A stretch of DNA of 64,000 nt from Cyanidioschyzon merolae (lineage: Eukaryota). The notes beneath the pieces were generated by a model. The model did not search any database, was not told the DNA's origin, and saw only the letters and a program-made list of their open reading frames with translations. The stretch lies in the NCBI GenBank assembly GCA_000091205.1, contig AP006498.2. One strand, given 5' to 3'. Position 1 is the first letter of the stretch, and every line of letters starts with the position of its first letter. Position numbers and translations under genes: made by a program. Shown piece after piece: positions 1,690-63,419 of this stretch.

Positions 1690-1849
1690 AGTTGTTGTTT
1701 AGGGTACTCGCAACAAGTTTACGCGAACCCGTCTATGACTGGTGTCGCCGGAGAAGTAGTAGCAGCACAAATAGCAGCTGCACCTCACGGGAAAGAATGG
1801 TTCAAAAGGCGTTCGCAGCGCAGCGCAGCGCAGCGCTGATCGGAATCGA

Positions 1850-12140: not shown

Positions 12141-12242
12141 CCGTGGAAACTTTTTGGCATCGAAATAGGAATCCGGCACGGGTCCAGAGGAGGCGCTTCC
12201 GCGGCACCAGCGCAGCGCAGCTGTCCCTTGGCAGGTACAAGA

Positions 12243-30539: not shown

Positions 30540-31010
30540 ACTTGCATGGGGACAGATGTCGAATGATCGAATGGAACAACGAGCGCTTGTGTATGCAGCG
30601 GACAGCGTGCTCGCCGAAAGGATGACCAAGAAGAGCCGCATGATCGAGGTTTACGGTACTGAGCACAGAAACGGAGATGGAAATTGGGTTGAACCATCTC
30701 CACAGGTCACGGGCATGTACCGAACGATATAACAAGCGTTCACGTACCATAGGGCGAAGCTCGGAGAAGCCTGTGTGTTTGACCCATGCACACACACACA
30801 CACACACCCGTCCACATCCTGGTTTCATCGCTATGACGGGCGCATCGAGCCTGCATGCAAAGAACATGAAAATGGCGAGCGAAGCGTGGATCGCAGCTTT
30901 CACTTGTGCATGAATTGCGTTGCCAATGGCCAGAAGCTGCGAAATCGGGACTTGAACGCTGTCATCAACATCCTTCGACGGATAAAAACAAAACCAGAAC
31001 GATAGCAGAG
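30540..31010 (+). pseudogene. Degenerate TnpB/Fanzor-like C-terminal fragment (family 2, copy 1)
   Basis: The translation ...ACKEHENGERSVDRSFHLCMNCVANGQKLRNRDLNAVINILRR shows a CxxC zinc finger followed by an RDxNAAxNI RuvC-III motif. The fragment is frameshifted upstream and contains a (CA)7 microsatellite. Confidence 0.5.
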
Positions 31011-32379: not shown

Positions 32380-34689
32380 ATGTGAAACAGAGGAAGCAAG
32401 TTGCCCATCAGTTGGCGGTTAACTGAGTAGGCGTGCTCAGAAGCAACACAACGCTTGCATATCCGCTCGAACGCACGCAGGTCGATCGGCACGCTCTGGG
32501 TTTTGGCATGGCGCACTTCCCGCCAAAGTGCGATAACAAGTTCCTCATTTTTGTTTGTTTGATGAAACGTTTACATTGTCCTCGGATCCCAGGTTGCACG
32601 ATGAATTGTGGCTATCGTGAAAGGGTTCATCATGTTGCACCCAAATTTTAAGTACCATGACGCATGCGTCCTCTCGGATGTCCAGGTCGTTCTGTGCGTT
32701 CGATCGTGCATCGAATGCCTGCGCTGAGCACCTGCAATAGCGCCTATGCTGCTGGTGCGGATGCAACACGGAGACAGAGCGGCATTGCCGTACCAATGAG
32801 GTCGTCGGCTCGAGGCGTGGTTCAACGCATTCGGTACTGGGACTCATCATACTTCTAGGAGCCTGAAAGGCTGTGCAGACAGACGTCCCCCCAGCGACCA
32901 CGCGAAGTGACATACTAGGAATCAACAGCGACCGGTGCGTCGCCGAGAAGCAGCCTATCCGCTGCGATTCCCAGACTAGACTGCGTTATGGACAAACTGC
33001 TCAGGTCTCGGCACTGCACCCGTCGCTGCAGAGGCACATGCAGCGGATGCCCGGTTGACTCGAGCGGCCGCAGGACCTTCCGCCTAGATGGTAAACTTTC
33101 GGACATAGGGAAAACTTTCCCCCTGCCAACGCTTACCGTAGAGGAAGAACGAAATCGTTATCGAGTTGCTAGTACGTTTTCCGTTTCTGATCTGTTGTCA
33201 ATGTTTACTCGATCGGATGCACGCTGAGGCTAGCAGCGCACCGCCGCGCCGTCCTAAAGCGATCAAAAAAGGCACAGTGTCGGAGGCGTTGCCGGACCGA
33301 TCAATTCGCTTTATGCAGCGGGAATACTGGAATGGAGGTCGTACAACGTGGAAACGTATGCACGGTACGAGCTGTCGCTTGGATGGGCATCGCCAGCATG
33401 AACGCAAGCAGGCAAGCTCGTCCCGTGTCACTGTTGGTGATTCCGCTCCCGAGTTGTTCACCTAGACTTGTCTTTTCAAATTTGCACAGGATACATGGGT
33501 ACCCGGCTAGAACCATTGCTTCTACATCAAAAGAAGCGCTGCGGCGTTGAAGCACGATCGGGCTGATGCCACAGACACTCCAACAGACATTGAGCGAAAA
33601 CCATGGTACACAAAATTAGGCAATGATTTGTGCGATCTTTCCATAACCTGCGAGCCATTGGAGACGAAAGAAGCAATTGAACCTCCGCAGGCAAAGGTTG
33701 AAGGGCCCTCATTTCACGCGCTCTACAGAATTCGAGCGGTTTCTGCGAACAACAGCTAAGAAATCGTTTCAATGATGCGACGCATATCAAAGTCTGGGTA
33801 TAGCATGGACCCTTTTTGCCCAAGTTTCCTCGCGACATGGAAAAAGCACAATGGGCGCAATAGACTGCACCTGAACACTCCAGACACATGAGCGCGAAAA
33901 ATAGCATCCTCGCGCTCGGCTACGTTTCTCCTGGACCTCTTGTAGATTAGAGTGGAACGCTGAACTGTGCGCGTTGTTCCAGTATTTCGATTTTTTTCGA
34001 ACCTTCTTTTGTCTACAGCTGCGACATTTGAACTTTGTCAATAAGAGCTCACGGATGAATACGTAGTTTTGGGATTCTCTGTCGTTGATTCGGTGTGACC
34101 TCGTCGCTGCTTCGTCGCTGGATTTCGTTGAATCAACGGGGTTACGATATATCTCGATGCCCTCGAACATGCTTTCGTAAACGAATCGATATCATTTTGC
34201 CATTTCATGCATAGAAGCCTCCGATCCTCTCCTTCCCTTCCATGACGCATGCTCAATTCAGACATTTTTCAAGTTCTCGATCTTTCTCTTCCGAGGCAAC
34301 TCCTGGGTGCAGCGGTTCGCGTCACCGGATTGGCAAGGGAAAATTCTCGAAGTCGCCCCTTGAAGCCTTGTTCAAAAGCGTATATGGAAAGCTCGCTGAA
34401 CTCTATGCGCAAAAGAATAGATACCGTTTGATAGACAAATCAGCAGCCGTTCATGGGCATCGACGAAACGGCAGGCAACAGCAGCTGGTACCACCCGCGG
34501 GATACGCTCCCAGGCGCTTCGGCCTCTTCGGTTTCCATGAAAGAGCGCCCCGGACTCAGCACTGATTTATCGCAGCAAACCGCATCCACTTTCGAATGCG
34601 TTACAGCTTTGCACAAAGAGAGCATTGACGAATCGGAATTTCTGGATCTCTTCTGCAAGCTGCATATTCCTTCTTGTACTTGTTCCAGC

Positions 34690-35879: not shown

Positions 35880-36480
35880 TGTCCTATTTCCGTATAGAAA
35901 GAACCGAGTGAGTCCTATAAGCCTTGCGTTCCAGTGGCAAACCTGCTATCTCCAGTCACGAACGCTCTCTATCGACCAGAGCATGACTCCAACTTGCCTC
36001 GCGCTACAGTTGCAAAACTGCTTTCTCCAATTTTAAACGCTTTCTACACTGAAAGGACCGAGTGAGTCCTATAAGCCTTGCGTTCCAGTGGCAAACCTGC
36101 TATCTCCAGTCACGAACGCTCTCTATCGACCAGAGCATGACTCTAACTTGCCTCGCGTTTCAGTGGCAAACCTGCTATCTCCAGTCACGAACGCTCTCTA
36201 TCGACCAGAGCATGACTCCAACTTGCCTCGCGCTACAGTTGCAAAACTGCTTTCTCCAATTTTAAACGCTTTCTACACTGAAAGGACCGAGTGAGTCCTA
36301 TAAGCCTTGCGTTCCAGTGGCAAACCTGCTATCTCCAGTCACGAACGCTCTCTATCGACCACAGCATGTCTCCAACTTGCCTCGCGTTTCAGTGGCAAAC
36401 CTGCTATCTCCAGTCACGAACGCTCTCTATCGACCAGAGCATGACTCCAACTTGCCTCGCGTTTCAGTTGCAACAAGGCT
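35880..36480. repeat. Satellite array: about 229-bp higher-order unit (two 75-bp subunits plus a 79-bp variant), about 2.5 copies
   Basis: ttccagtggcaaacctgctatctccagtcacgaacgctctctatcgaccagagcatgactccaacttgcctcgcg recurs at about 35929, 36082, 36157, 36312 and 36387. The array sits directly upstream of SUV3. Confidence 0.85.
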
Positions 36481-44368: not shown

Positions 44369-44795
44369 CCGCCGCGCAGAGGTGCACCTATGCCCTGGCA
44401 AGGCGTGGGAATGTCTGTACTAGCATGTCGCTAAATTTTGTGCCGCGCAGAGGTGCTCCTATGCCCTGGCAAGGCGTGGGAATGTATGTACAAGCATGTC
44501 GCTAAATTTTGTGCCGCGCAGAGGTGCTCCTATGCCCTGGCAAAGCGTGGGAATGTCTGTACAAGCATGTCGCTAAATTTTGTGCCGCGCAGAGGTGCTC
44601 CTATGCCCTGGCAAGGCGTGGGAATGTCTGTACAAGCATGTCGCTAAATTTTGTGCCGCGCAGAGGTGCTCCTATGCCCTGGCAAGGCGTGGGAAGTCTG
44701 TACAAGCATGTCGCTAAATTTTGTGCCGCGCAGAGGTGCTCCTATGCCCTGGCAAGGCGTGGGAATGTCTGTACAAGCATGTCGCTAAATTTTGT
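44369..44795. repeat. 71-bp tandem repeat, about 6 copies
   Basis: The unit gccgcgcagaggtgctcctatgccctggcaaggcgtgggaatgtctgtacaagcatgtcgctaaattttgt recurs with a 71-bp period (starts near 44369, 44440, 44511, 44582, 44653, 44723). It is preceded by an (ACACGA/CCAACA)-like microsatellite at 44220-44260. Confidence 0.9.
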
Positions 44796-46426
44796 TGTTG
44801 CTCGTTAGACAACTTGTACGCTTCAGTCGTGCGTCTGTTGTCGTTTCGTGGCGCTACACCGGTGTCAGACGATAAGGCAACACCGTACTAGTCGCTCTTT
44901 TCCTGCTTTCCGACTTTTGTCTGAAGTTTTCTTAGATCCATAGCCTTGATCTTCTAAGTGCGGCAATAAGGGGATAACGGAAACATACGTAGTTCTAGGA
45001 TTCTCGGTCGCATTTTCAGATAGATCCTACGACGCTTTGTCGGTACAGTTCGTCACGTTTCCGAAATCACGATGATTGCCGACACTCTCAGTCAAGATTT
45101 TAGAAAATAACCTATAAGATTATCCATTTCTTATGAACAAGCTTCCACGCTTCTGATTCCCGTGCTTGGAGCAAGCTCAAATCATATCTTTCCAGGGTTT
45201 GCCATCTTTGGTTTCACCTGGCAAGTCGCATGCGCCGCCATTCGCAACGCTCCGTTGACGAGGACAGTAACGCAACCAAGTGCCTTGTGGACTTGATCTC
45301 CAGCCGGGTTTTCCCTTTCCAGGCATGTTCCATTATGGACAGTGTCGCGTTCCGCGATCCCGCTATCGAATGGGACAGCGCACGCCTGCTTGTACAGCGA
45401 ACAGCGTACTTGTCGAGTAGCTCGACCAGCAGAAACCGCACGTTGTAGCGTACAGCAACTGGATTAACAACGGAGGAGGGCATCGTGCGGAGCCTTGTGT
45501 ACTTTTCAAGGGATGCACGCGGCGATGAAGCAAGCGTTTCTCGCGACTCAGACAGGTCCGCGATCCGAAGTGGAAGCATCCGTGAACACGCGAGGATACC
45601 TGGCCTCAGTCCATAATCACCGGTGCGAAGCGCGTACCGAATGCATTCTGCAAAGAAGATAGCAATCGCGCTTCACGCGTAGATCGTCACTACCGCGCAT
45701 GCATGAGATGCTTCGACGAGAGCAGCACGTCACAAACTCGGGACGCGAACGTCGCCGTGAACATTTTTACAGCTGGCAGCGGAGCTGAAAAGAACCGTTT
45801 AACCGGATGTTTGAAAGCCCATGATAAGAGAGCGAGAGAACGGAAGCAGACGCGGAAACATCCGCAAACCCCGGTGTTGATGATACTGGGAAACCCTCAA
45901 ACCTCACATTGTACGCCCACTTGATAGGACCTGGTCCATTGAACCCTGGCACGGGTGTAGACAGGGAGCGCAGAGCGACCTTGCGTCGCGAGTATAAAAC
46001 AAAACAATACTGGGGGTGGTATGATCAACAGCAGGCAACCGAGCATTCAGCGCCTCGTTGACGCTACGTCAGGGCATAGACTAGCAAGCACGCTTACCGC
46101 TGCTGCTGCTGCCCTCAAGACGTCATACAGCGCGCTACACCATTGATTGATCACTAGACAAGAAGGCTGGCGTTCTCAGGCAATGGGACTTGAATCATGT
46201 ACACACTTTACTTGGCCGTCCATGATGCTGCCCCTCGAGAGGCTTCCATGTATTGCTTTCCTGAGAGAAGACAGCACAGCAGAAACACGCCTCATTCAAA
46301 GTCGCATCCAGTCAAGGAGCGGACGCTACTCCTGACGATGACGCTTCATTGGCTGAGCGCCGTGGTTTGAGTGCGTGCGTTCAACAGAATGCTCGAACAG
46401 CAGACGTTTTTCCGCACTGCTCGCTC

Positions 46427-48412
46427 CTAGTCGACTTCTTCGACAGTTGGGCCGCTGCCAGTGCCAGCGCCGCCAGCACCAGGCATGCCGCCAGCTCCAG
46501 GCATGCCGCCAGCTCCAGGCATACCACCGGCACCTGGCATGCCATCTGCAGCGCCGCCAGCTTGCTGGTACATGCGAGTGAAGATGGGCATGGTAACGCT
46601 TTCCAGCTCTTTCTGCATGTTCTTGATCTGATCGAGCGAAGCAGTGGCGCCGTTTTCTTCGAGCCATTCCAGCACTTCTTTGGTCTTGTCAAGAATCTTC
46701 TGCTTGTCGCCGGCGCTGAGGCTCTGAGCTACCTGTTCCTCTTCCACGGTGCGCTTCGCCGAATAGGCCAGCTGCTCGAGCGAGTTGCGCGCCTCGACCG
46801 TGCGTCGGACTTCTTCATCCTTCGCCTTCATGGCCTCTGCCTCCTTCACCATGCGCTCAACCTCCGCCTCGCTCAGCCGACCCTTTTCATTCTTAATCGC
46901 AATCCGTTCACTCTTACCGGTAGTCTTGTCAACTGCTGTAACATTCAGGATGCCGTTCGCATCGAGGTCAAATGTGACCTCAATCTGAGGCACACCCCGT
47001 GGTGCCGGCGGAATACCTGTCAAGGTGAACTGTCCCAACAGGTGGTTGTCCTTGGTCATAGCGCGCTCGCCTTCATAAACTTGAATCGTGACAGCAGGCT
47101 GATTGTCGGCATAGGTTGTGAAGATCTGGCTCTTCTTTGTCGGGATTGTGCTGTTCCGCGGAATCAAAACAGTCATGACACCTCCGGCGGTCTCAATACC
47201 GAGCGAGAGAGGCGTCACGTCGAGCAACAGAATGTCCTTGGTCGTTTCAGACTCATGGCCCGACAAGATTGCAGCCTGGACGGCTGCTCCGTACGCCACC
47301 GCCTCATCCGGATTGATTGACTTGCAGAGCTCCTTGCCATTGAAGAACTGGCTAAGAAGTTGCTGAATCTTTGGAATGCGTGTCGAGCCGCCGACGAGAA
47401 CGACGTCGTCAACTTGGCTCTTCGACAAATTCGCGTCCTTCAGGACCCTCTCAACAGGATCGAGGGTGCTGCGGAACAAATCTCCGCAGAGCTCCTCGAA
47501 CTTGGCTCGAGTGATTGAGCTGTAAAAGTCAATGCCGTTGTAAAGGGAATCTATCTCAATCGTCGCTTGCGTCGCCGACGACAGCGTCCGTTTCGCCCGT
47601 TCGCACGCCGTCCGCAATCGCCGCATGGCTCGATTGTTCCCAGTAATGTCTTCCTTGTACTTGCGCTTGAACTCCTTCACGAAATAATCCACCATTCGCG
47701 AATCAAAGTCCTCGCCACCCAGATGAGAATTGCCAGAGACTGCGCGCACCTCGAAGATGCCCGAATCGACGCTCAGCAAGCTCACATCGAATGTTCCACC
47801 ACCAAGGTCGTAAATCAGCACATTGCGCTCCTTGTTATCACTCGTCTTCTTATCAATACCATACGCGATTGCGGCTGCCGTCGGCTCGTTGATGATGCGA
47901 AGGACGTTCAGACCGGCGATCGTACCAGCATCCTTTGTCGCCTGGCGCTGGGAATCATTGAAATATGCCGGCACTGTGATAACAGCATCAGTAACCTTCG
48001 TTCCCAGGTATGACTCCGCAATATCCTTCATTTTCGTCAACACCATGGCACTGATCTCCTCCGGGGAGAACCGTTTCACGTCGCCATGTGCGACAACCTG
48101 GATGAGCGGCTTGTCACCCGGGCCTTGAACGACCTTGAATGGCCAGTGCTTCATATCCTCCTGCACGGTAGGATCAGAGAACTTACGTCCAATGAGACGT
48201 TTCGCGTCAAAGACAGTATTCTCGGGGTTCAGCGCTACCTGGTTCTTCGCGGCGTCTCCGATGAGGCGCTCCGTCTCCGTGAAGGCAACATATGACGGGG
48301 TCGTCCGGTTGCCCTGCTCGTTCGCAATAATCTCAACCTTGTTGCCTTCCATAACGGCAACGCACGAGTAGGTCGTGCCAAGGTCAATTCCGATCGCCTT
48401 TGCCTTTGACAT
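46427..48412 (-). CDS. HSP70: Cytosolic heat-shock protein 70 (HSP70/HSPA family)
   Basis: [26 protein letters not shown] and [14 protein letters not shown] signatures are present. A C-terminal (GMPGAG)n repeat is followed by the EEVD cytosolic tail. The 661-aa ORF is uninterrupted with an ATG start. Confidence 0.95.
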
Positions 48413-48667
48413 TGTTCAAAGCTCGTTAACAGGAACTATTCCACGAACACGAGTTAAACGTCCAGTCTGAACACTCTGTCTCACTTGCTCCGCAACAAGA
48501 ACAATATGCTCCCGTACCGGAACTCGCTCCTCTGACACACGTGTTCTAGCGAACGGCGCGTGTTTGACTATGAACACCAATGACTCTTAAGTAGACGCCC
48601 ATTGTATGAATGGGGCCGCGACACGATCGCTAGCGACGCGTCGATCGGCGCGCCGCAGCGATCGTGC

Positions 48668-48690
48668 GCCGACGGTTCGCGAAGGATTCG
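48668..48690. promoter_or_regulatory. Candidate heat-shock-element-like dyad in HSP70 upstream region
   Basis: gTTCgcGAAggaTTCggaAGc contains an inverted TTC/GAA dyad about 260 bp upstream of the HSP70 ATG and about 25 bp from the Fanzor-like element end. The spacing is imperfect (one 3-nt spacer), so this is weak. Confidence 0.25.
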
Positions 48691-48873
48691 GAAGCTTTGC
48701 CGCGAAAAACGCCAGCGGCGTACAGTAGTGGCAGCGACCGCGCCTTAGACAAATCGTTCTCAGCTGACGTGCAGACGCCTCCCAGCCTTTCTCGACCGGC
48801 CACCTACTACTGCTTCCAACTTCTTCTCATATAGTTCGACTTTGAGGGGTTGTCCAACAAAGTTCTCTCTTGT

Positions 48874-50274
48874 CTATTCTGGAGATCTGTTCTCCAGCAC
48901 CGCACATCTCCGTATATTGCTAGGGGCATGAAAGTCACGATTCACACACTCCATACGGTTCTTGCCATCATTGGTTGTACTTACTAACGCAGGCAATCCT
49001 CGAACGTTCGCCCTCCTTTCCATTTGCTCCTCTGTTAGCGGTCCGTACTTTGCGATTTCCTCAGGGCACCGCTGGCACTTGTCTATCTCGACCGTCTGAA
49101 GTGTACAACCCAGCTCGTGGTGTGTATAGGACGTTCGGAACTCATCTACAGGTATCGTGACGAGACGCCTTCCACACTCCTTGTACGTTCTTGTTGTTGG
49201 AGCTGGTATGCACCCCTTTTGGGTCTTCCATCGCCCTGCTCCATACGCTACGACGAGCCTTTGACTCTGGTCCCCGTTGAGCGCACGCAACTGATTGAAA
49301 AAGTTGGCAAACGCCCGCTGCCTCCCACAGTGTAGATTCATACGCAGACGGGCCCACCGAGGCTTTGTATATTCCTTCCACAGCGCATCCCAATGGGCAA
49401 CACGAACTTCCATGAATTTCCGAAAAGCTCGAAAGTCCGCTCCTCGGCTCGTCACCTCGCTCATAGCTTCCAGGTGCTCTTTCATTCCTGAATTCCACGT
49501 TTCGATTTTCTTCGTCGCATTTATGACACCGGATTCTCGATAGAATCTCGCTCTCGAGAACGTCAACAGACGGATGTCTTTCTGACGTAAGTTGCCGTAA
49601 GTACCATCTTCCGCCCGCTTCGGTGCTGCGATGGTTATGGTATTTGTGCTTCCGGGGTCCGTGCCAACGACAAAGTCGATATCCTGCACTTTCTGCTTCT
49701 CAGAACCCGCCTTCTTGTTCTCTTCATTCTTTACCGCGCCAACGACAAGGTCGTTATGCTCCACCTCCTGCATCGCAGGATCCGCCGTCTTCTTATCTTC
49801 ATCCTTCGTCACGTCAACGACAAGGTCGTTATCCTCCACCTCCTGAATCGCACGTTCCTCCTCTTTGTTTTCTTCATCCCTCGTCACGGGCGAAGTCAAA
49901 GGCGGAACTGGCCGATCTGTCTTCAACCGCCGATCGTGTACACAAAAGGCTACCCCATCGGTTTCGATCTTCCCAGTGAATACATTTTGCTTGCTCACTT
50001 TGGGACGCTTGGAATCGGAGATACGCTTCCAGTGGGTCTCCCGGTTTTCGCCGGTGAAATCCTTCCTGCTAACACTGAACTTCGGTCCGATCTCCCTCAT
50101 GATGCCGTAAAGGACGCCGGAGTCGATACTCACGAAGTATGACTTGATATTGGACAATGGAACCACGCCGGAGCGCTTCCCCACTAGGACAGCCTTCCGT
50201 CTCTCCCACTCTTCATTTGTCTCTTCACTCAGCTTCATCTCCGCCTTGCGTTCGAGCTCTCGGTCCAGAAACAC
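48874..50274 (-). CDS. TnpB/Fanzor-like RuvC-fold nuclease homolog (OMEGA-type RNA-guided endonuclease family)
   Basis: RuvC-I: [20 protein letters not shown] (D at about residue 206). Zinc-finger region: [13 protein letters not shown]...EIDKCQRC...MEC. RuvC-III: [15 protein letters not shown] (compare TnpB DRDxNAAxNIxxxG). The canonical RuvC-II glutamate is replaced ([11 protein letters not shown]). A 2-unit 25-aa acidic repeat sits just N-terminal to RuvC-I. The ORF track start is GTG; the first in-frame ATG is at codon 13. Confidence 0.75.
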
Positions 50275-50308
50275 AAAGTACCGTAGGACGAGGCGATAGT
50301 ATCGTTCC

Positions 50309-50947
50309 TTATCTTTTTTTCAACTCTGATATCTTTTCTGTTTGATTCGCCAACCCCAGTACCGCACGGTGCTCTTGTACAGTCGCCCGGATCACAGAAG
50401 CTTCATTCGCGCTCTCGTTTGACGCCTTCTTCTCGACAAATTCGACCTCATCTTCATGCTGTCGATCTTTCGTGATGCCATTGATAGTCGCCCATTTTCC
50501 TTTGCGAGAGATGCCCGGGCGGAGTGCAACCGCGGCGCGGATCACGAAACGTTCGAGGTTCGTTGTCAAACGGCTCGTCAGGTTCGTGAGGTACTTCATC
50601 GCCCCGTGGTCGTAAATATCCGCGCCACCCCTGTATCGGGTACGCTCGAAGCGGAATGCCGCGAAGTTTTCGTGGAGGGCATGCACTAGCACATTTTCCC
50701 TCCACGTTCCTGCTGTACAAAGCATCAGGTAGAGAAAAATCGTCTTGTCGAAAACCTCGTCCGGAATCTCGACCGATTCCATGTGCGTCACGTCGAGATA
50801 CATCTCCCTCGCCAGATGCATCAGTCCTGACGAAGCCTTTATAATACTCATGGAGTACGACTCAACACGGTTTCTAGTTGCCTCCCGTAACTTCTCCACC
50901 CACGCATTCTTGATATGTTTAAGAAGACAGGCTTTCACCACCGTCAC
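50309..50947 (-). CDS. ORF-A: probable N-terminal extension/exon of the Fanzor-like protein, separated by a +1 frame break at an A7 run
   Basis: The 212-codon ORF ends ...ISELKKR-stop at an AAAAAAA run. With A6 the frame would read ...[28 protein letters not shown]... directly into the nuclease ORF. The frame is also open upstream of its GTG start-type codon. A 77-codon KR-rich ORF (50944-51177) lies in another frame across the poly-T runs. Confidence 0.55.
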   Translation of the reverse strand: MTVVKACLLKHIKNAWVEKLREATRNRVESYSMSIIKASSGLMHLAREMYLDVTHMESVEIPDEVFDKTIFLYLMLCTAGTWRENVLVHALHENFAAFRFERTRYRGGADIYDHGAMKYLTNLTSRLTTNLERFVIRAAVALRPGISRKGKWATINGITKDRQHEDEVEFVEKKASNESANEASVIRATVQEHRAVLGLANQTEKISELKKR

Positions 50948-51919
50948 GTAGGACTCTTGTTTTTCGTGCAGCTTCTGACGTGGGCTCTCCCTCTTCTGCG
51001 TCTTTGTCTTTTCCTGTTACTCTCCGCCGGGCACTGTTTTTTGTTTTTTTTTCTGGCAGCCGGCGACACCTGCCTTCCAGGATCCTCCACTTGCTTTTCC
51101 AGAAATTTCCTTTTTTTCGAAAAAGAACGCGCTTTGAACGCTTCTGTTATAAACTGCGAAGAATCAACCGAATACACTCATTTGAGCGTTGAAACACGAC
51201 TGAGATGAAGTAATATATTTCGCTACGATTCCAATGCAAATACATGTTTTACGTTAAAACAACAAGTCAACGAATGGTCAGGATCGCGTTTCCCTTCAAC
51301 GGCGAGATGCGCGTCGTACCTCATGCCTGCCGGTTATGGAGGTGCGCATCTCGACCGCACTATATGCAGCAAAGAACAGGACTAGCTACTGACTAGCAAT
51401 GAGATGACCATTTCTTTCCCACTCTACAGTAAACGTTAAAAGGGCAAATGTTGCCATATCGTCGGAAGCTTACCTTCCAGGCGAAAGGTCCAGCGAGCCG
51501 GACGAGTCTCCGGGGGTTCGTGCTTCATGGCTTCCCCTTCGCCACCCCAGTGCCAGGTGCTTTAGTGATATCTGACCAACTCATCCCCGAAGCGGTTTAT
51601 TCCGGCATTAAGGGTGCTCAGGCAGCGTCTGGGCGTCGCCCTGGTCGCAGCGCATTCGGTGGTACGCCTACGCTGTTCTGTCCCTGTGCAGCATCCGCTC
51701 CAGCGGTACAAGCGCTGCGGCGGGTGCTCACCGCAGGCTCGGCGCACGAAAGAACGCACAAATCGACCAATCTAGCGGAAAGGGAGTCTAAGTAATGGAA
51801 CCTGGAGGCAGGGTGCACCATGATGGGCGCTTTCCCGAAAGCCGATATCCATCCCGCAATCCGTGATCCACGGTCAACGAATAGGTTTTCTCAGACCAGA
51901 AAAAGAACAAGACACGACG

Positions 51920-52600
51920 CACATCTCGCCGTTGAAGGGAAACGCGATCCTGATCATGAACGTGTCGCTCTAACGGACAAGACGTGTTAGGGTTGAAGGG
52001 GCAGCAAGGTCTAGTCTTTCAATGCATTCGTGTTCCACTAGCCTCGTAGAGTATTCAAGTGGTTTTTCGCGGTTAACAGCAGATGCGTTCCAAGTGCGTT
52101 CGTTCTCAAAAAAAATAGAATGCAATGGTATGGACGTGAAAGTCGAGGATACCGGAGGACCGTCATTGCCGAGTTCGACAAGCAAAATGAGGAAATCCTC
52201 TTCCCGCCGACCACCTATCCAAGAAGAACAACGGGTGACGACAACGAAGACGATGACGATGACGACGATGCGATATAGGCGAGAAAAGGTGTTTGCTCAC
52301 CGGTACGTTTACGAAACTGTGGTGGCACAGAGAGCACGAGTTCGAGGCGTCTTCGCAAAGCGAGGTTCCACCATCGGCCATAAATGCAAGGAGTTCGTCG
52401 ACCGAGACCCCAACGTCGCCATCATGATCAGATAATATGCAGAGCGAAAGACTTTACCCGAGGAACTGACGCGATCTGACTTGCGGGGCAGTCTCTCAGG
52501 GTCTCCGTACACAACCAGAAGCTGAAGCCGACAGCAGGGCCCGGTCCAGCACGGCAGGGAGGCGTCTGCGGGTAGATATCCATGTATACGACATGGTCGT
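51920..52600. repeat. Dispersed repeat family X (copy 2), beginning with an inverted copy of a roughly 230-bp module of the Fanzor-like element 5' region
   Basis: 51920-52145 is the reverse complement of 51095-51320. The match is near-perfect over the 40-bp core tcaggatcgcgtttcccttcaacggcgagatgcgcgtcgt and about 70% elsewhere. 51990-52600 is homologous to 27225-27830. Confidence 0.6.
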
Positions 52601-56170: not shown

Positions 56171-56379
56171 TCAATAGGCTCCCGAGAGAAGCCTGGGGAG
56201 CTGCAAAAGATATCTGCAGTGGACCGTCGTGCGCTTCCAGGTTGCCCGACTTGGGCGAGTGCTCCACTGGAACGAACAGCAGCGAGAGCGCTCGATGACG
56301 CCCGGCGGCAGCGCAGCTGCAGATCGCACACTCGTCCATTTGCGGGTGTAGCTGCAATCGCTAAATTGTCAAGTGCAAG

Positions 56380-56990
56380 CGGCACCAGCAACTCGAGAAC
56401 GATGGGTTTCTCTCTCTACGGTAAGTGCTGAAAGGGGGAAGAGGTTTTCCGTATTTTCGAAACTTTATCCTATAGATGGAAAAGCAGCAACTCGAGAACG
56501 ATGGGTTTCCATCTCCACGGTAAGCGCTGAAAGGGGAAGAGGTATTCCGTATTTTCGAAACTCTACCCCATAGATGGAAAAGCAGCAACTCGAGAGCGTT
56601 TGCTTTCCCTCTCTACGGTAAGTGCTGAAAGGGGGAAGAGGTTTTCCGTATTTTCGAAACTTTATCCTATAGATGGAAAAGCAGCAACTCGAGAACGATG
56701 GGTTTCCATCTCCACGGTAAGCGCTGAAAGGGGGAAGAGGTATTCCGTATTTTCGAAACTCTACCCCATAGATGGAAAAGCAGCAACTCGAGAGCGTTTG
56801 CTTTCCCTCTCTACGGTAAGCGCTGAAAGGGGGAAGAGGTATTCCGTATTTTCGAAACTCTACCCCATAGATGGAAAACCAGCAACTCGAGAACGATGGG
56901 TTTCCATCTCCACGGTAAGCGCTGAAAGGGGGAAGAGGTTTTCCGTATTTTCGAAACTTTACCCTATAGATGGCAGATCTCGCGTGCTCG
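56380..56990. repeat. About 100-bp tandem repeat, about 6 copies
   Basis: The unit aactcgagaacgatgggtttccatctccacggtaagcgctgaaagggggaagaggtattccgtattttcgaaactctaccccatagatggaaaagcagc recurs near 56388, 56489, 56586, 56686, 56787 and 56885. It lies in the MgtE upstream region and generates long spurious ORFs on both strands. Confidence 0.9.
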
Positions 56991-58391
56991 ACGTGTCTAC
57001 CGGGCTTGTGCTCCGTGCGACTCTGCAGTGGCGGGTGCTCTTGCGCGACCTGAGTAGCATACCCGCTCCTAGGCCCAGAATAAAGTGCGTTGGGGACGAG
57101 TGGCTGTGCTGTTGCCACTGCACTCGCCAGGGCAGAGACGCGCGGACCTACAACACCGGAGCATTGTCGGCCTTGCGGGACCTTTCGTACAGAAGCTAGG
57201 TTTGCGACTGTAAGGAAACCTTCACCACTTTTCAGCTCTTACGGTGGAGTGGGAACGAAGTCATGCAAAGTAGTTTGTTCGTGTTTCATTTCTGTTCTAT
57301 TACCCTAATAGTTGATGTCCAGTGAAACGGAACGCATGCCCGGGTTGCGCTGCCGGCGCGGCAATTGTTGATACAATAACATCGATGAATCGAACCAGAA
57401 CGCTTGGGATGCGTACGTTCGTGCTGTACGCAATCAGGAAAGTGACCAGCATTCCCTAGAGACGTCCATGCGCCCCGGAAGCTGCAGCCCGTTTCCCAGC
57501 CTGCACCGGGAGTTTGACTGAGCGAACGACCCTGCAATTGCCGAGCCTACCGCAAGCGCTTGCTGTGGCGTTGCAGGCGCCCAACTAGTCGCCTTGTGGA
57601 GACAAAAAGCGTCTGCGTCGTATCCCAGCGGGAATCTCATCGAGGCTCAGGGCCATGCCCGCCTGGCACACGCCCCTTCGTTGTCCGTGCGAATTTCGGG
57701 CCGCATGGAGGTCGTGCTGCGGCGCGAACTCGCGGCATCGTCGTATCTGCTCGCTGAAGAGCGACCGCCTGCGGTCGCTGCTTCCTCCGCATACCGTGCA
57801 ACTGCATTCTTTCTGCCAACGGGGGTGACGTGCGCCAGTTCGGCATCGCCCGCGTGCTGCAAATTTGAAACCGTCACCGGCAAAGGATTTCTGTCCGCCT
57901 AAGTAGCTTCTCTAGGCACAGGCGTCTCCATCGGGAGCTGGGTACACGTGCTGGGTTCCGGATGAGGGTGCATACCCAGTCTCGCCACAATGCCCGCTCG
58001 CTGGACGTATCCGCGTGACGCTGTGTGCCTCGTTTGCCTCCAGGCCGGGTTTCTGGTAGTTGAGGACACCGCGCAGCCTGCTCATATGCAAGCCAGCCGA
58101 TCCTGCGTGCATTTTCGTGATCGAGTGCTCGCGTGCGTGCTATCAGTAGCCCGTCTGCGTGCCATCCGATTCCACGAGGAATCTTCAGAACAAATGCGCG
58201 CACCTACAGCATCAGTGGCAACGAGTAAGCACGAGTACCGCAGACCTCGAGTGCAGACTGCTGTATGCCTTGCATGCAGCGCGTCGCGCTGTCGACGCTG
58301 CGGCAGGGCGCCTTGTGCGCAAATCGGCTGCGACGTCTGTACTCGCGTCGAGACGCCTTTCCAGTAGGCAGCGTTCGGGAAAACTGCAGCC

Positions 58392-60353
58392 TTGCCAATA
58401 GAACTGAACGTTGTTGCACGGAATAGGAGCTGTGGAACATGCATGTCCAGGGAAAACGGGAACAACGGCCAGAATGGGAATACGACGGACGAAGAGGCTT
58501 TCCTTGTCGACGAGAGAACAATGACGGTAGATGGGCTTCCCCTGCACATCTGGTGTCGCACGCCCGGGAACCTAGCAAAAGTACGGGCCCTGGTGGAGCG
58601 AGGCGCAGACGTCAACGCGGTTGACGAACACGATGCGACACCGGTCTACTACTGCGCCTTGACGGGGAACGCTCCAGTGCTCCGTTTCCTGCTAGAAGCG
58701 GGAGCCGTGCTCGACCCGAAAACGTTTGTTGGCGAGCGTGTTCTATACGCCGCTCTAACTCCAGAAATTAAACGCTTGCTGCTTCAGTATCGGGAGCAAA
58801 CGCTCCCTAGCTATACGGATGCACTGACGGAGCACCTGCGCGCTGTCCTGGAGGGTAACGAGAACGTCGGCGGACACGTCGATGATGATGCCGACGTCGG
58901 CTTCAGACTTGAGGGGAATCGCTGCATCTGGGCCCATCGGGTGGTGCTCGCTGCCCGCAGCCCGGTTTTCGAGAAAATCCTCGAGAAACGAACATCACCG
59001 GGCAAAGTCCTGCGGCTGAAACACGTCTCCACGGATGCATTCGAGGCGTTTCTGCGCTACCTGTACACCTCAACCGTTTCCGTGCGGGTACGGCATGCGG
59101 AAGAATTCATGACCATAGCGCAGCGGTTCCATCTCGATGAGCTCGCCCAGGAAGTCGATAGGCAAAGGCAATGGCTCTTGCGAAAGCGCGAGCACAAATA
59201 CGAAGTTGTAACGCATCAGCGCCTCGAAGATCTACACATCAATCTTTTCGGCGCGTCGCGAGTCCACCGTCTGGAACAGGACTTGGAGCACCTTCTGTCG
59301 CGTACCGATAACATGCCGTTCGTGGACGTGTACGTACAGGTAACGTGCCCAGGCCCCACATACGAGGAATGTTCGTTGTTGGTGTACCCCGCGCACTGGC
59401 TTTTTCTTCGTCGTGCGGAGTACTTTCGGGCCTTGCGCGACTTTTATCGCGATCGTTCCAGTGCCTGTGCAATCGTGCGCATCCCGTCGAATATCTCTCC
59501 TTTTGCTTTCGAATGCGTGTTGCATCACATGTACCATTCGAGCCTTCCCCGGAACTGGCGCGAAAAGGCACTTGATTGTGCGCGCCTCCGACGCGAGCCG
59601 TGCAATCATCACGCAGTGGACGTCGACATGAACGAGTTTCTGGTGGAGATCATTGCCGCCGCCGACCTTCTGGGCTATCCGCATGTGAAGCAGTCAGCCG
59701 CCTCAGCGATGGAAATCAATCGCATCAATGTCTTCGGTCTCATCTACGCGGCGGCATGTTATCAGTCGCGGGCGTTGCGAGCAGCTTGTGTGCGAATCCT
59801 TGCGGAGATGCTGTTGGATGCGGTGCAGCCTCTGCTTGTGCCGAGCGTCACGGCGATTTCTTGTTCGGCAACCCGAGTTCCAGAGCCCGGCAGTATTGCA
59901 GAGGCCTTGGTGCCGCACGTGGATTCGCAGTTGAGGCTTCCGCCCGCCGATTCTCGCACACGAGACTCGTCGATTGCCACCTCACAGGAATCGAACCACG
60001 CTAGCCAATGCTCGTCGATTGCTGCAGTGTCCGCAACGGACACTTGCACAATGCCGTCGTGGCAGGTTCTGAACCAGTGTCCGACGCATGTCGTTCAGGT
60101 CGACCGGCACGCAACCGTTTTCCAGCGTGCGCGCGATTTCATCGCCCTCAGACAAGTGCTCAGTGCGGTTGAATTCTCGGAAATCATGGAGGATGTTCGC
60201 GAGGAAGCCCTGCGTCTGGGCCTCGTGCATAAATTTAGTTCGGCAGTCAGGGACGCACTCGGCGAGACGCTGGATTGTATCGTTTTCGAAATCACGGACG
60301 GGCTGGTGTTGGCCGAGGGCAGCGCAGAGCGCACCACGAGACACCATGCGTAG
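58392..60353 (+). CDS. Ankyrin-repeat and tandem BTB/POZ domain protein (ABTB1/BPOZ-like)
   Basis: Ankyrin repeats: LPLHIWCRTPGNLAKVRALVERGADVNAVDEHDATPVYYCALTGNAPVLRFLLEAGA. First BTB domain: DVGFRLEGNRCIWAHRVVLAARSPVFEKILEK...AFEAFLRYLYT. A second BTB-like block: VVQVDRHATVFQRARDFIALRQVLSAV. The ORF track start is TTG; the first ATG is at about 58443. Confidence 0.7.
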   Translation: MPIELNVVARNRSCGTCMSRENGNNGQNGNTTDEEAFLVDERTMTVDGLPLHIWCRTPGNLAKVRALVERGADVNAVDEHDATPVYYCALTGNAPVLRFLLEAGAVLDPKTFVGERVLYAALTPEIKRLLLQYREQTLPSYTDALTEHLRAVLEGNENVGGHVDDDADVGFRLEGNRCIWAHRVVLAARSPVFEKILEKRTSPGKVLRLKHVSTDAFEAFLRYLYTSTVSVRVRHAEEFMTIAQRFHLDELAQEVDRQRQWLLRKREHKYEVVTHQRLEDLHINLFGASRVHRLEQDLEHLLSRTDNMPFVDVYVQVTCPGPTYEECSLLVYPAHWLFLRRAEYFRALRDFYRDRSSACAIVRIPSNISPFAFECVLHHMYHSSLPRNWREKALDCARLRREPCNHHAVDVDMNEFLVEIIAAADLLGYPHVKQSAASAMEINRINVFGLIYAAACYQSRALRAACVRILAEMLLDAVQPLLVPSVTAISCSATRVPEPGSIAEALVPHVDSQLRLPPADSRTRDSSIATSQESNHASQCSSIAAVSATDTCTMPSWQVLNQCPTHVVQVDRHATVFQRARDFIALRQVLSAVEFSEIMEDVREEALRLGLVHKFSSAVRDALGETLDCIVFEITDGLVLAEGSAERTTRHHA

Positions 60354-60393
60354 CACATGCACTGGACTAGCGTGCAGAACGCCGTTTCCAACT

Positions 60394-61212
60394 TTACATA
60401 TCGCGAAACTCTATTCGACGCGATTTTAGAAGCGCCCACTTGAATCGTTTCATGTAAAGCATCAGACCTGCCAGAATGCCCAGAGAAACCATGGTTTCAA
60501 CACCCATGAGCTTGCGCTGATCGTGCTCCGGCTCTGCTGCCCAGCTCAGAAACGTAGCCACATCTTTCGCCATCTGACTTGTTGTGGCCGGAGTTCCGTC
60601 GTCGTACTCGACACCGTCATCGTAGAGCGCTCGGGCCATTGCAATCTGCTGGCCAGGGAAGTATGGATTGTAGTAGAGGCCTTCGCGAACGTGCACACCG
60701 GCCGGTGGATCACGGTAACCAGTCAGGAGTGCGAAGATGTAGTCGGCACCACCATGACGTGCCTTGGTGATCAAAGATAGGTCCGGCGGAAGCGCTCCGT
60801 TGTTGGCGTAGCGCGCGGCCTCTGCATTTGGATATGGCGCTGGGAAATAGTCCGAGAGTCGGCCAGGACGAGTAAACATCTCGCCTTCGTCGTTAGGCCC
60901 ATCCTCAACCTCAACCTCCTCCGCTAGCTGTTTCGCCTCCTCCTCAGTGAAGGCAACACCCACCAGGTTGCGAAAAGCGACTCGGTTCATCGAGTGGCAC
61001 GAAGAGCAAACATTCTTGTAAACTTGGTAGCCACGACGTATGGAAGCTGCGTCAAACGCTGACAAGGGACCGCGGTGAGACCAGGGGTATTTTGGTGGTG
61101 GCAAGTGGTCCTCTTCGGCGAGCGCGGGCTGTGCGCTCATCAGAAGATACCCGGCACCCGAGACGCCCGCCGCGAAAGCCGCGCCGTTCAGCAGTCGCGT
61201 TAGGACCTGCAT
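60394..61212 (-). CDS. CYC1: Cytochrome c1, heme protein (mitochondrial complex III subunit)
   Basis: Heme-binding CSSCH motif, [53 protein letters not shown] and a C-terminal transmembrane anchor are present. The ORF track extends to 61314; the likely ATG is at about 61212 (MQVLTRLL...). Confidence 0.9.
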
Positions 61213-61793
61213 TCCTTTGACGCGATTCTTCTCGATATAATTGAAGCGTTGTCCAGTAACCTGAAAGATCGGGCGCTGCCAGAAAACTCGTCCGCAACAA
61301 GGCACGAAATGCACGCCCTGTCGAAGCGCAACAGCACACCGGTACAGTGTTAGCGGCCTTTCACCGCAGAAACTCGCACTGATGGTGCTTTACGGAAGCT
61401 TCTCTTCGTCGCGCCTTGAGCTCTGTTCCCGGTCGAAGCGAGGCTCCCCGGGTCTGCAAAGCTCTAATAAAGCCACGTGGGCAAAGAGTCGTGCACTGCA
61501 GCAGCTGCAGCACGAACCAGATATGCTGCACCCGTTCAGAGCAAGTGCAGTGCCTCGTCTCTACTGCCGATAACGGATCCGGAGACCGACGACGGTAGAG
61601 AAACCAAACGCCTTCACAGAGTCGAACGATGCCGACTGTGTACAGTAGTGGCGGTGAACGCGCCCTAGACTTAAAGTCGCCAATTGACGTGCAGACGCCT
61701 CCCAGCCTTTCTCGACCGGCCACCTACTACTGCTTCCAACTTCTTCTCATATAGTTCGACTTTGAGAGGTTGTCCAACAAAGTTCTCTCTTGT

Positions 61794-63419
61794 CTATTCT
61801 GGAGATCTGTTCTCCAGCACCGCACATCTCCGTATATTGCTAGGGGCATGAAAGTCACGATTCACAAACTCCATACGGTTCTTGCCATCATTGGTTGTAC
61901 TTACTAACGCAGGCAATCCTCGAACGTTCGCCCTCCTTTCCATTTGCTCCTCTGTTAGCGGTCCGTACTTTGCGATTTCCTCAGGGCACCGCTGGCACTT
62001 TTCCATCTCGACCGTCTGAAGTGTACAACCCAGCTCGTGGTGTGTATAGGACGTTCGGAACTCATCTACAGATATCGTGACGAGACGCCTTCCACACTCC
62101 TTGTACGTTCGTGTTGTTGGAGCTGGTATGCACCCCTTTTGGGTCTTCCATCGCCCTGCTCCATACGCTACGACGAGCCTTTGAGTCTGGTCCCCGTTGA
62201 GCGCACGCAACTGATTGAAAAAGTTGGCAAACGCCCGCTGCCTCCCACAGTGTAGATTCATACGCAGACGGGCCCACCGAGGCTTTGTATATTCCTTCCA
62301 CAGCGCATCCCAATGGGCAACACGAACTTCCATGAATTTCCGAAAAGCTCGAAAGTCCGCTCCTCGGCTCGTCACCTCGCTCATAGCTTCCAGGTGCTCT
62401 TTCATTCCTGAATTCCACGTTTCGATTTTCTTCGTCGCATTTATGACACCGGATTCTCGATAGAATCTCGCTCTCGAGAACGTCAACAGACGGATGTCTT
62501 TCTGACGTAAGTTGCCGTAAGTACCATCTTCCGCCCGCTTCGGTGCTGCGATGGTTATGGTATTTGTGCTTCCGGGGTCCGTGCCAACGACAAAGTCGAT
62601 ATCCTGCACTTTCTGCTTCTCAGAACCCGCCTTCTTGTTCTCTTCATTCTTTACCGCGCCAACGACAAGGTCGTTATGCTCCACCTCCTGCATCGCAGGA
62701 TCCGCCGCCTTCTTATCTTCATCCTTCGTCACGTCAACGACAAGGTCGTTATGCTCCACCTCCTGCATCGCAGGATCCGCCTTCTTCTCATTTTCATCCT
62801 TCGTTACGCCAACGACAAGGTCGTTATGCTCCACCTCCTGCATCGCAGGATCCGCCGCCTTCTTATCTTCATCCTTCGTTACGCCAACGACAAGGTCGTT
62901 ATGCTCCACCTCCTGCATCGCAGGATCCGCCGTCTTCTTATCTTCATCCTTCGTCACGTCAACGACAAGGTCGTTATCCTCCACCTCCTGAATCGCACGT
63001 TCCTCCTCTTTGTTTTCTTCATCCCTCGTCACGGGCGAAGTCAAAGGCGGAACTGGCCGATCTGTCTTCAACCGCCGATCGTGTACACAAAAGGCTACCC
63101 CATCGGTTTCGATCTTCCCAGTGAATACATTTTGCTTGCTCACTTTGGGACGCTTGGAATCGGAGATACGCTTCCAGTGGGTCTCCCGGTTTTCGCCGGT
63201 GAAATCCTTCCTGCTAACACTGAACTTCGGTCCGATCTCCCTCATGATGCCGTAAAGGACGCCGGAGTCGATACTCACGAAGTATGACTTGATATTGGAC
63301 AATGGAACCACGCCGGAGCGCTTCCCCACTAGGACAGCCTTCCGTCTCTCCCACTCTTCATTTGTCTCTTCACTCAGCTTCATCTCCGCCTTGCGTTCGA
63401 GCTCTCGGTCCAGAAACAC
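61794..63419 (-). CDS. TnpB/Fanzor-like RuvC-fold nuclease homolog, copy C (541 aa; repeat-expanded)
   Basis: Same motifs as copy B ([13 protein letters not shown]; [13 protein letters not shown]). It differs by five 25-aa [25 protein letters not shown] repeats and a few substitutions, including Cys-to-Phe in the zinc-finger region (MEC to MEF). Confidence 0.75.

Follow-up and report, generated by a model that had tools for sequence, protein, structure and literature searches.

The window, a stretch of 64,000 nucleotides of Cyanidioschyzon merolae DNA, contains three copies (A, B, and C) of an element of ~3 kb, all on the minus strand, as located by self-BLAST and by BLAST with a published consensus. 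Each carries remains of a gene for Fanzor1, a eukaryotic protein related to the RNA-guided nucleases TnpB and Cas12. A preliminary description made from the letters alone had already counted three copies in 64 kb, and the bounds it gave for copy B, 48712-51880, agree with ours within ~20 bases. BLAST bounds copy B at 48710-51893, and the family alignment moves the 3′ end to ~48690. The BLAST blocks pair consensus 4-240 with 51893-51656, 366-2193 with 51650-49812, and 2124-3145 with 49731-48710, with consensus positions 241-365 deleted. The features are as follows.

9510-12162, minus: copy A, consensus 1-2641, 3′-truncated
~48690-51896, minus: copy B, with TE-N2_CMe-like 5′ part, then Fanzor1 pseudogene, then 3′ tail
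51376-51896, minus: TE-N2_CMe-like 5′ module of copy B, consensus 1 to ~640
50944-51177, minus: copy B ORF of 77 aa, K/R-rich (NLS-like) extreme N-terminal region
50309-50947, minus: copy B ORF of 212 aa, N-terminal REC-like helical part of Fanzor1
48874-50274, minus: copy B ORF, 466 aa if begun at a GTG and 454 aa if begun at the first ATG, spanning the C-terminal two-thirds of the Fanzor1 frame
49659-49888, minus: in-frame 75-nt (25-aa) tandem repeats, directly upstream of RuvC-I
49665-49651, minus: RuvC-I GTDPG, catalytic Asp codon 49659-49657
49149-49129, minus: VDEFRTS, relocated RuvC-II glutamate, Glu codon 49143-49141
48942-48913, minus: RuvC-III, 10-residue motif, Asp codon 48936-48934
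48690-48873, minus: 3′ tail of copy B, candidate omega-RNA scaffold, terminal hairpin degenerate in B
61638 (~61610) to 64000, minus: copy C, which runs off the end of the window at consensus position 1151
61794-63419, minus: copy C ORF of 541 aa

The 466-aa ORF holds all three RuvC motifs (I, relocated II, and III), is 73.7% identical to residues 261-734 of the published CMe-1 protein, and scores E = 1e-105 by hmmsearch against a profile of distant relatives; the 212-aa ORF scores E = 7.5e-39 to positions 6-229 of the same profile. The published CMe-1 protein begins MEKEVEDPGGPVSPAAGKKRKT and was aligned with the extreme N-terminal region of copy B. The consensus N-terminus has basic clusters, GKKRKT...KKQKREARRQRLQERRQ, that look NLS-like by sequence. 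The KR-rich ORF that had been proposed as an NLS is partly an out-of-frame translation, and the true frame is basic as well. Copy B has three units of the 75-nt repeat ahead of RuvC-I, copy C has six, and the published consensus has one; the corresponding region of an intact 752-aa metagenomic relative (P0002, residues 384-469) is predicted to be disordered.

Family identity and the Fanzor1 assignment

The family is already known, having been published in 2013, so what we present is a re-discovery from raw sequence. CMe-1A was described as a Fanzor1 family of Cyanidioschyzon merolae with a 3169-bp consensus and ~150 copies; it encodes a protein of 734 aa, is without terminal inverted repeats, and matches a separate element, TE-N2_CMe, in its 5′ 635 bp (Bao & Jurka 2013, Mobile DNA 4:12, PMC3627910). 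The window copies are 82-88% identical to this consensus in nucleotide sequence over the whole 3.1 kb, by BLAST and alignment, and 68-74% identical to the CMe-1 protein. By BLAST with the published consensus, copy A has 83% identity over consensus 1-2641, copy B has 82-88% over 4-3145, and copy C has 85-88% over 1151-3137, and all three have the identity of at least ~80% over most of the length that we use to assign membership. The similarity is not due to chance, because 153 database homologues are found with E <= 1e-3, the majority of them below 1e-87. There are no differences at the family level between the published CMe-1A and the elements here, which share with it the 734-aa consensus protein reading across both ORF junctions, the TE-N2_CMe 5′ module, the copy length, the absence of terminal inverted repeats, and a ~80% divergence from the consensus that matches PMC3627910. 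Copy B differs from the consensus by the 125-bp 5′ deletion, the extra 75-nt repeats, the frameshifts, and the loss of the ATG. No terminal inverted repeats were found on the window elements, those elements that were examined showed neither a Rep/helicase nor any other transposase, no TnpA-like ORF was found in or beside them, and an exact-sequence cluster look-up of four window proteins gave no match. We consider it highly likely that the window copies are degenerate CMe-1A, a non-autonomous DNA element of ~3.2 kb whose single gene encodes a Fanzor1 protein.

The evidence supports a multi-copy eukaryotic Fanzor1 transposon family of the TnpB/Cas12 superfamily, whose ORFs join to a protein of ~730-750 aa. 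That assignment is drawn from the alignment with the published CMe-1A and CMe-1 sequences, a profile search of the PDB, and a fold comparison of a confident model, and it bears out the superfamily that had been recognized beforehand. In the profile search, hmmsearch with a profile of 87 relatives at ~30% identity was run against 177,635 PDB sequences, and the only matches were Fanzor1 proteins, namely PpFz1 9cf0 (E = 1e-21), SpuFz1 8gkh (1e-13), and GtFz1 9cer (7e-9), with DPG, DEFRTS, and NRD aligned. The structure model was made from the intact P0002, rather than from a broken window copy, and the AlphaFold result has a pLDDT of 82.5 and a pTM of 0.81. Foldseek of this model against the PDB, the kind of structure-based search that had been suggested beforehand, returns seven top matches that are all Fanzor1 (SpuFz, PpFz, and GtFz), with E from 1.4e-15 to 7e-13 and target-normalized TM-scores of 0.49-0.73, SpuFz1 scoring 0.71-0.73; Cas12f and others rank after these with E > 0.02. 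Across the RuvC half of the family, third codon positions vary 2-4.6x more than first and second positions, which shows that the protein was under selection as the family expanded.

Simpler searches do not detect the relationship. When the three window ORFs and five intact relatives were scanned with Pfam, none matched the TnpB models (OrfB_IS605 and OrfB_Zn_ribbon/Cas12f1-like_TNB); the only precomputed Pfam label is DUF8286 (PF26935), and one distant relative has a weak match to Cas12f1-like_TNB at E = 0.002. The OrfB check recommended in the preliminary description thus misses the protein entirely and, taken alone, would wrongly have turned us away from the Fanzor idea. Nothing relevant came from phmmer of the 466-aa ORF against the PDB, nor from hmmsearch of the PDB with a shallow 32-sequence family profile, so membership depends on the deeper profile and the predicted fold.

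The motifs align with catalytic positions, as had been anticipated. The RuvC-I Asp (D484 of P0002) and the relocated Glu (E656) are invariant in the 87 distant relatives, and the RuvC-III Asp (D725) is nearly so. GTDPG aligns to DPGR of PpFz1 and DPNK of SpuFz1, and VDEFRTS aligns to IDEFRTS and LDEYKTS of the same two proteins, in solved structures. It is a Fanzor trait that the canonical RuvC-II Glu is replaced by Gly or Pro, with an alternative Glu ~35-45 residues downstream in DE[FY][RK]TS (PMC10530073); here the canonical site is occupied by VVAYGAG, and VDEFRTS lies downstream of it. The family consensus of RuvC-III is NRDFNAAINI, of which B and C keep the Asp but change NAAINI to HAPSNI. 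The zinc ribbon is the exception among the motifs that had been listed, having the form HH...C...C and not C4: B and C have a degenerate region YTHHELGC...KCQRC after VDEFRTS, CMe-1 has YTHHELGC-x9-KC, and the C4 zinc finger motif that Bao & Jurka place between [TS][TS] and RD is absent, with no CxxC pairs in the consensus of the 87-member clade. By sequence, then, the zinc finger is degenerate or lost in the CMe-1 clade; CMe-1 was counted as a Fanzor1 in the original paper despite the C4 motif defined there (PMC3627910).

Decay of the copies and the near-identity of B and C

Copies A, B, and C are pseudogenes or relics, none being intact in the window, and their defects can be read directly from a four-way alignment. 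In copy B, the consensus ATG is CTG at 51102-51100, two extra A residues in an A9 run at 51052-51044 shift the frame, and one extra A in an A7 run at 50320-50314 separates the N-terminal part from the downstream frame. The A7 frameshift recurs in copy C, as do B's TAG codon and HAPS changes; the start of C lies outside the window. Copy A, rightly called an old relic before, is truncated at its 3′ end, has several frameshifts, and is without VDEFRTS, the zinc finger region, and RuvC-III. Intact relatives read straight through both ORF junctions, P0002 with 752 aa and the CMe-1 consensus with 734 aa, in keeping with the ~700-780 aa that had been predicted from joining the adjacent ORFs. An ORF of at least 650 aa is kept in only 1 of 35 full-span family copies. 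Sequencing error at homopolymers is rejected as the full cause of the frameshifts, because the copies are disabled by substitutions as well (ATG to CTG and NAAI to HAPS) and because independent metagenome contigs that cover this locus (L001-L003) carry the same changes.

It might be argued that B and/or C still function, slippage at the two poly-A runs restoring the frame so that a working RNA-guided nuclease and its omega-RNA are made. Both frame breaks do lie exactly in homopolymer runs, none of the catalytic codons (D, E, and D) has been lost, and the coding signature is weak after RPPE, with TAG at that codon in 17 of 54 copies, such that the TAG may be the natural C-terminus and not a defect. 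We find this reading hardly credible, since it requires two independent slippage events of different size in a copy whose ATG has become CTG, with NAAINI changed to HAPSNI in RuvC-III, with the 3′-terminal hairpin degraded in B (z = 0.1) and in C (z = 1.3), and with the other 34 of the 35 full-span copies likewise broken, as expected of a normal pattern of decay. The conditional statement made earlier, that if expressed this would be an RNA-guided endonuclease system, is therefore inapplicable to the window, where the copies are pseudogenes.

Over unique segments, B and C share 99.0-99.1% identity, as the earlier estimate of about 99% has it; the overall value is only 97% because C has three extra 75-nt tandem units. 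They were thought to owe this to recent transposition or duplication. Segmental duplication is rejected because the 3′ flanks differ, HSP70 adjoining B and a cytochrome c1-like gene adjoining C. That difference in flanks, together with the high identity and with the inactivating changes common to both, which would imply copying after inactivation, is also what recommends a recent transposition of one from the other, mobilized in trans. The comparison that bears on this is with a conspecific metagenome contig (L014). Its flank matches that of C at 99-100% identity, and an element is joined to it at the same point, with the same last ~30 bases; yet the interior of that element is only 77-87% identical and is without the changes specific to B and C. 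The insertion at C's site would then be older than the similarity of B to C, and over the ~30 bases at the 3′ end, before which the B-C similarity ends, C agrees with L014 and not with B. Finding another element interior at exactly the site of C favors ectopic gene conversion, which is most likely the source of the near-identity, and makes recent transposition unlikely, with the reservation that L014 could be a chimeric assembly.

The 3′ tail and how the family may spread

The cognate omega-RNA had been expected at about 48712-48880 in copy B, and there is indeed a conserved, partly non-coding tail there that ends in a hairpin; the part of the expectation that concerns RNA structure is not borne out by covariation. 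Across 42 copies the tail stays conserved as far as ...GGCG(TT), and beyond that point the similarity is lost. The 3′-terminal hairpin has z < -2 in 24 of the 42, its sequence forms differ between copies, and one copy (L032) carries an unrelated palindrome. RNAalifold on a 273-column 3′ alignment gives -0.1 kcal/mol, which is essentially no consensus structure, and an Rfam search of 48500-52300 gave no match. A hand-built model of six helices pairs in 82% of cells, and by five covariation measures it is no better than shuffled controls, so we do not claim it. A 5′ hairpin candidate near consensus 648-668 was dropped with a mean z-score of 0.05.

By analogy with the solved Fanzor1 enzymes, the protein of an intact member would act as they do, its N-terminal helical lobe and a WED-like part binding an omega-RNA transcribed from the element 3′ end. 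The 3′ end of that RNA would run into flanking DNA, which would act as the guide. The predicted RuvC site, made of the D of GxDPG, the relocated E of VDEFRTS, and the D of NRD, would cut matching double-stranded DNA beside a short target-adjacent motif, and by analogy with TnpB this may help the element to be kept or copied when the cut is repaired from another copy. CMe-1A itself encodes no transposase and lacks terminal inverted repeats, and a 3′-terminal hairpin closes most of its copies.

The tail and hairpin could instead be a cis element for mobilization by a transposase acting in trans, as at the subterminal hairpins of Helitron or IS200/IS605, or a signal for the transcript 3′ end, and would then not be an omega-RNA. 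The hairpin stands at the extreme end of the element, copies cease to resemble each other right beyond it, it persists in more than one sequence form, the unrelated palindrome among them, and the internal helices are without significant covariation. Fanzor1 genes of Chlamydomonas ride in Helitron2 elements with terminal hairpins (PMC3627910). We regard this alternative as possible, if somewhat doubtful, since a Rep/helicase or other transposase was not seen in the elements examined and the guide RNA scaffold of characterized Fanzor and TnpB systems maps to the same position. The two roles, cis element and omega-RNA, are not mutually exclusive.

Comparison with known systems helps to place the family. 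The solved Fanzor1 structures are SpuFz1 (8GKH, 9CEU-9CEZ), PpFz1 (9CF0-3), and GtFz1 (9CER-T), and the P0002 model suggests that the CMe-1 clade has the whole-protein fold in common with them. In common also are the RuvC-I DPG, the relocated RuvC-II Glu in DE[FY][RK]TS, NRD, and a C-terminal ...RP(P)E... ending. Sequence identity is only 12-14%, however, the CxxC...CxxC zinc finger is missing from the CMe-1 clade, and CMe-1 carries a disordered 25-aa repeat insert before RuvC-I. TnpB of IS200/IS605 and IS607, for example ISDra2 TnpB, belongs to the same superfamily of RuvC-based RNA-guided nucleases, a role that is predicted for CMe-1, and both are alike in that the guide RNA is expected at the element 3′ end and that the right end bears a hairpin, either subterminal or terminal. 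Unlike TnpB, CMe-1 has no TnpA partner and no Pfam OrfB match, is ~2x the size, and has a basic NLS-like N-terminus, a rearranged RuvC-II, and a eukaryotic nuclear host. The Fanzor1 genes in Chlamydomonas Helitron2 elements (CRe-1 to CRe-3) are likewise the sole gene of high-copy non-autonomous elements with hairpin-containing termini and no terminal inverted repeats, whereas no Helitron hallmarks are established for CMe-1A, its superfamily being unclassified and its 5′ hairpin unsupported.

Cyanidioschyzon merolae grows at ~40-55 °C. A further reading is that CMe-1 is not extinct, an intact hot-spring copy (the P0002 locus, 722-752 aa) with a tail and hairpin omega-RNA being an active, heat-tolerant, zinc-finger-less Fanzor1 that spreads by homing. 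We hold this to be improbable as a whole. If it were true, copies would be spread and homogenized by nuclease-triggered gene conversion with no transposase, and the B-to-C conversion would be a footprint of homing. If the intact metagenome copy is active, it would be a Fanzor1 of an alga of ~40-55 °C and might interest genome-editing work.

There is little new biology in the window itself, because the copies are dead, and the rediscovery confirms that a reading of raw sequence is able to recognize Fanzor motifs. What goes beyond the 2013 description is the 3′-terminal hairpin with a conserved tail where a guide RNA would be expected, the likely gene conversion between copies, and the finding that the 5′ 640 bp of the consensus are an optional module, with alternative 5′ heads. 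The TE-N2_CMe-like module is present in only ~10 of 63 non-redundant family copies, which is about one in six. A solo copy of TE-N2_CMe lies in the window at 32565-33198, in agreement with its published description.

Members of a published Fanzor1 family

Copy B lies at 48.7-51.9 kb on the minus strand and has three ORFs in adjacent frames.

50944-51177 (-), ORF rich in K and R
50309-50947 (-), ORF of 212 aa
48874-50274 (-), ORF of 466 aa with all three RuvC motifs
49665-49651 (-), GTDPG, within the 466-aa ORF
from 49149 (-), VDEFRTS, then YTHHELGC...KCQRC, within the 466-aa ORF
48942-48913 (-), RuvC-III motif, within the 466-aa ORF

Self-comparison finds a second copy, C, from ~61610 to the window end and a third, A, at 9510-12162, diverged further than B and C, and a repeat scan of the window finds no inverted repeats of at least 150 nt. 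ORFs, motifs and self-comparison reproduce, nearly to the base, the three-copy element of the preliminary description. Its figure of about 99% for B against C also holds, at 99.0-99.1% over the unique parts; overall identity is 97% because C has three additional 75-nt tandem units. This 75-nt (25-aa) in-frame minisatellite sits directly before the RuvC-I strand (B 49659-49888, C 62579-63033, both on the minus strand), and is predicted to be disordered; B carries 3 units, C 6, the intact metagenome relative P0002 4, and the published consensus a single one. A GC content of 55%, intron-less host genes such as HSP70 at 46427-48412, and the family match given below point to C. merolae or a very close relative as the host. 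Another 75-nt-period tandem repeat, at 35921-36453 (family D3 of the repeat scan), is unrelated to the Fanzor1 copies.

Homologues of the 466-aa ORF are 153 unnamed proteins, 53-89% identical, all from hot-spring-type metagenomes (JGI, ENA), with PF26935 (DUF8286) as the sole precomputed Pfam label. Among them P0002, at 752 aa, runs uninterrupted across both copy B ORF junctions, so the proposal that the adjacent ORFs can be joined is sustained. Bao and Jurka (2013, PMC3627910) described CMe-1A as ~150 copies with ~80% identity to a 3169-bp consensus encoding a 734-aa protein, without terminal inverted repeats, with target-site duplications undetermined, and with the 5' 635 bp being a distinct element, TE-N2_CMe. 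The published consensus, as DNA and as protein, was aligned to the window.

Copy A, consensus 1-2641, 83% identity
Copy B, consensus 4-240, 366-2193 and 2124-3145, 82-88% identity
Copy C, consensus 1151-3137, 85-88% identity

On this alignment the element is a member of CMe-1A, and the Fanzor1 family of the window is thus already known. What is added here is the terminal hairpin with a candidate omega-RNA tail, the modular 5' end, and a probable gene conversion.

The Fanzor1 assignment was also checked independently of the 2013 one. Pfam, whose OrfB models the preliminary description had proposed as a test, detects no TnpB domains in the window ORFs or in the intact relatives, and neither a single sequence nor a shallow family profile has a PDB match. 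Among 1.84 billion representative proteins, all searched by profile, there are 1553 relatives, and P0002 with 86 distant ones (~30% identity) makes up alignment A2. D484 (GxDPG) and E656 (VDEFRTT) are invariant in A2, and R724, D725, N727, A729, N731 and I732 (NRDxNAAxNI) nearly so. Against PDB the A2 profile matches exactly three sequence groups, all Fanzor1: Parasitella PpFz1 (E = 9.8e-22), Spizellomyces SpuFz1 (E = 1.2e-13) and Guillardia GtFz1 (E = 7e-9), with RuvC-I, the relocated RuvC-II and RuvC-III in register across them. The AlphaFold model of P0002 with A2 as input is confident (pLDDT 82.5, pTM 0.81), its disorder limited to the 25-aa repeat insert. The best seven Foldseek matches of the model in PDB are Fanzor1 structures (E = 1.4e-15 to 7e-13), with target-normalised TM-scores of 0.49-0.73, the four SpuFz1 entries being at 0.71-0.73; Cas12f, Cas12i and others rank below these seven, at E > 0.02.

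At the position of the TnpB RuvC-II glutamate the family has AYGAG, and a conserved glutamate follows ~35 residues downstream. A rearranged RuvC-II active site is a described Fanzor trait (PMC10530073), and the CMe-1 family has the same rearrangement, with the glutamate moved downstream. The original Fanzor motif has a C4 zinc finger, whereas the CMe-1 version is degenerate (HH...C...C) and the A2 clade consensus lacks the C4 form; the zinc-ribbon insert of the preliminary description is degenerate, not a C4 finger. The Fanzor reading within the TnpB/Cas12 superfamily is borne out by the A2 profile, the Foldseek matches and the conserved D/E/D: the original finding is real, its interpretation is correct, and the family is a known Fanzor1 family.

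Decay, the 5' end and the likeness of B and C

Scored against the published CMe-1A consensus, copy B has the following defects.

51102-51100, initiator ATG changed to CTG
51052-51044, +2 A in the run
50320-50314, +1 A in the run
48876-48874, TAG at the codon following ...RPPE
RuvC-III, NAAI changed to HAPS
5' module, 125-bp deletion

Of these, the A7 frameshift (50320-50314 in B), the TAG and the HAPS changes recur in copy C. Copy A has the CTG of B with different frameshifts and ends at consensus 2641, so that it has no relocated glutamate, zinc region or RuvC-III. The TAG after RPPE may not be a defect, since it is found in 17 of 54 family copies and the coding signature beyond it is weak. 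The window and 71 metagenome loci together give 35 non-redundant full-span copies, of which just one, the P0002 locus, keeps an ORF of at least 650 aa; the window copies are non-functional relics. In the RuvC half, third codon positions are 2-4.6 times more variable than first and second, so the protein was under selection during family spread, in agreement with the coding capacity reported as maintained in 2013 (PMC3627910).

Consensus 1-640 is present in only ~10 of 63 non-redundant copies; the majority of the 63 start near consensus 650-690, and there are several alternative upstream "heads". It follows that the 3169-bp consensus combines a ~2.5-kb core with TE-N2_CMe. A solo TE-N2_CMe-like element lies at 32565-33198 (+), 77% identical to consensus 9-638.

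The question of how B and C came to be so alike is informed by the metagenome loci. L001-L004 carry B with the HSP70 locus at 98.4-99.5% identity, with the defects of B. Locus L014 has the C flank at 99-100% identity and an element at the identical junction with the same terminal ~30 bases, and its interior is only 77-87% identical to C, with NAAINI and TGG in place of the HAPSNI and TAG of B and C. The B-C similarity itself stops ~30 bases short of the 3' end. Most simply, ectopic gene conversion probably replaced the interior of C recently, with B or a copy like it as the donor; a chimeric metagenome assembly is a possible alternative.

The host loci at 44655-50412 (L001-L004) and 58773-61600 (L014) recur at 98.4-100% identity in hot-spring contigs (JGI 3300005573, 3300005861 and 3300025503; ENA ERZ27247228), so the organism or a conspecific is abundant in those samples. 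Downstream of the HSP70 locus, ~71-nt tandem repeats at 44371-44795 give multiple offset matches when L001-L004 are compared by BLAST.

The 3' end and the omega-RNA question

Aligned, 42 non-redundant 3' ends are similar up to ...GGCG(TT) and then abruptly lose similarity, which defines the 3' terminus. The final ~25 bases of most copies form a hairpin, of which there are two or more register-shifted forms, CGUCGUUCGA-CUU-UCGAACGGCG and CGUUUUUC-UUUU-GAAAGGCG, with compensated variants, as in the metagenome locus L013. Its z is below -2 in 24 of the 42 copies (mean -2.3), and in the window it is degraded (B, z = 0.1; C, z = 1.3). At L032:2193-2433, the 3' end of the family member at another metagenome locus, its place is taken by a perfect palindrome (10-13 bp) of unrelated sequence, GAGCACGCGC-UCGU-GCGCGUGCUC, so hairpin formation itself may be under selection.

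The ~190-nt tail downstream of RPPE is conserved near coding level, yet has frequent stops and frameshifts, and it contains the complementary segments AGUAGU/ACUACU, CCGGUC/GACNGG, AGAC/GUCU and GGCG/CGCC. RNAalifold gives no consensus fold of the tail, a hand-built model has covariation above shuffled controls in 0 of 5 measures, and Rfam has no match to it. The omega-RNA location predicted in the preliminary description, this candidate 3' tail, is plausible, and by analogy with characterised Fanzors it is the place to expect one; a role of the terminal hairpin in mobilisation is just as possible.

Other Fanzor1 remnants and repeats

Another, divergent Fanzor1 family has left a remnant at 22566-22871 (-), reaching ~23275; the remnant is 30-38% identical to residues 425-679 of CMe-1, the published protein (A2 hmmsearch E = 1.6e-15). 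Bao and Jurka give a single Fanzor family for C. merolae (PMC3627910). Weak colinear matches to the Fanzor1 profile at 7969-8733 (+) and 30733-31002 (+) (E = 1e-5 to 1e-6 and 1e-3) point to additional copies that are decayed and very old.

At 51907 to ~52600 (+) and 27250-27820 (+) are two short relatives with internal deletions and 64% mutual identity, which retain a 5' part resembling consensus 683-938 and a 3' part resembling consensus 2850-3084 that includes the GGGAGGCGTCTGC motif; the former lies head-to-head with copy B, directly against its 5' end. A 99-nt tandem repeat array occupies 56333-57024; at its 3' side it overlaps sequences at 56877-57259 that resemble the TE-N2 module (consensus 392-615) and occur in both orientations.
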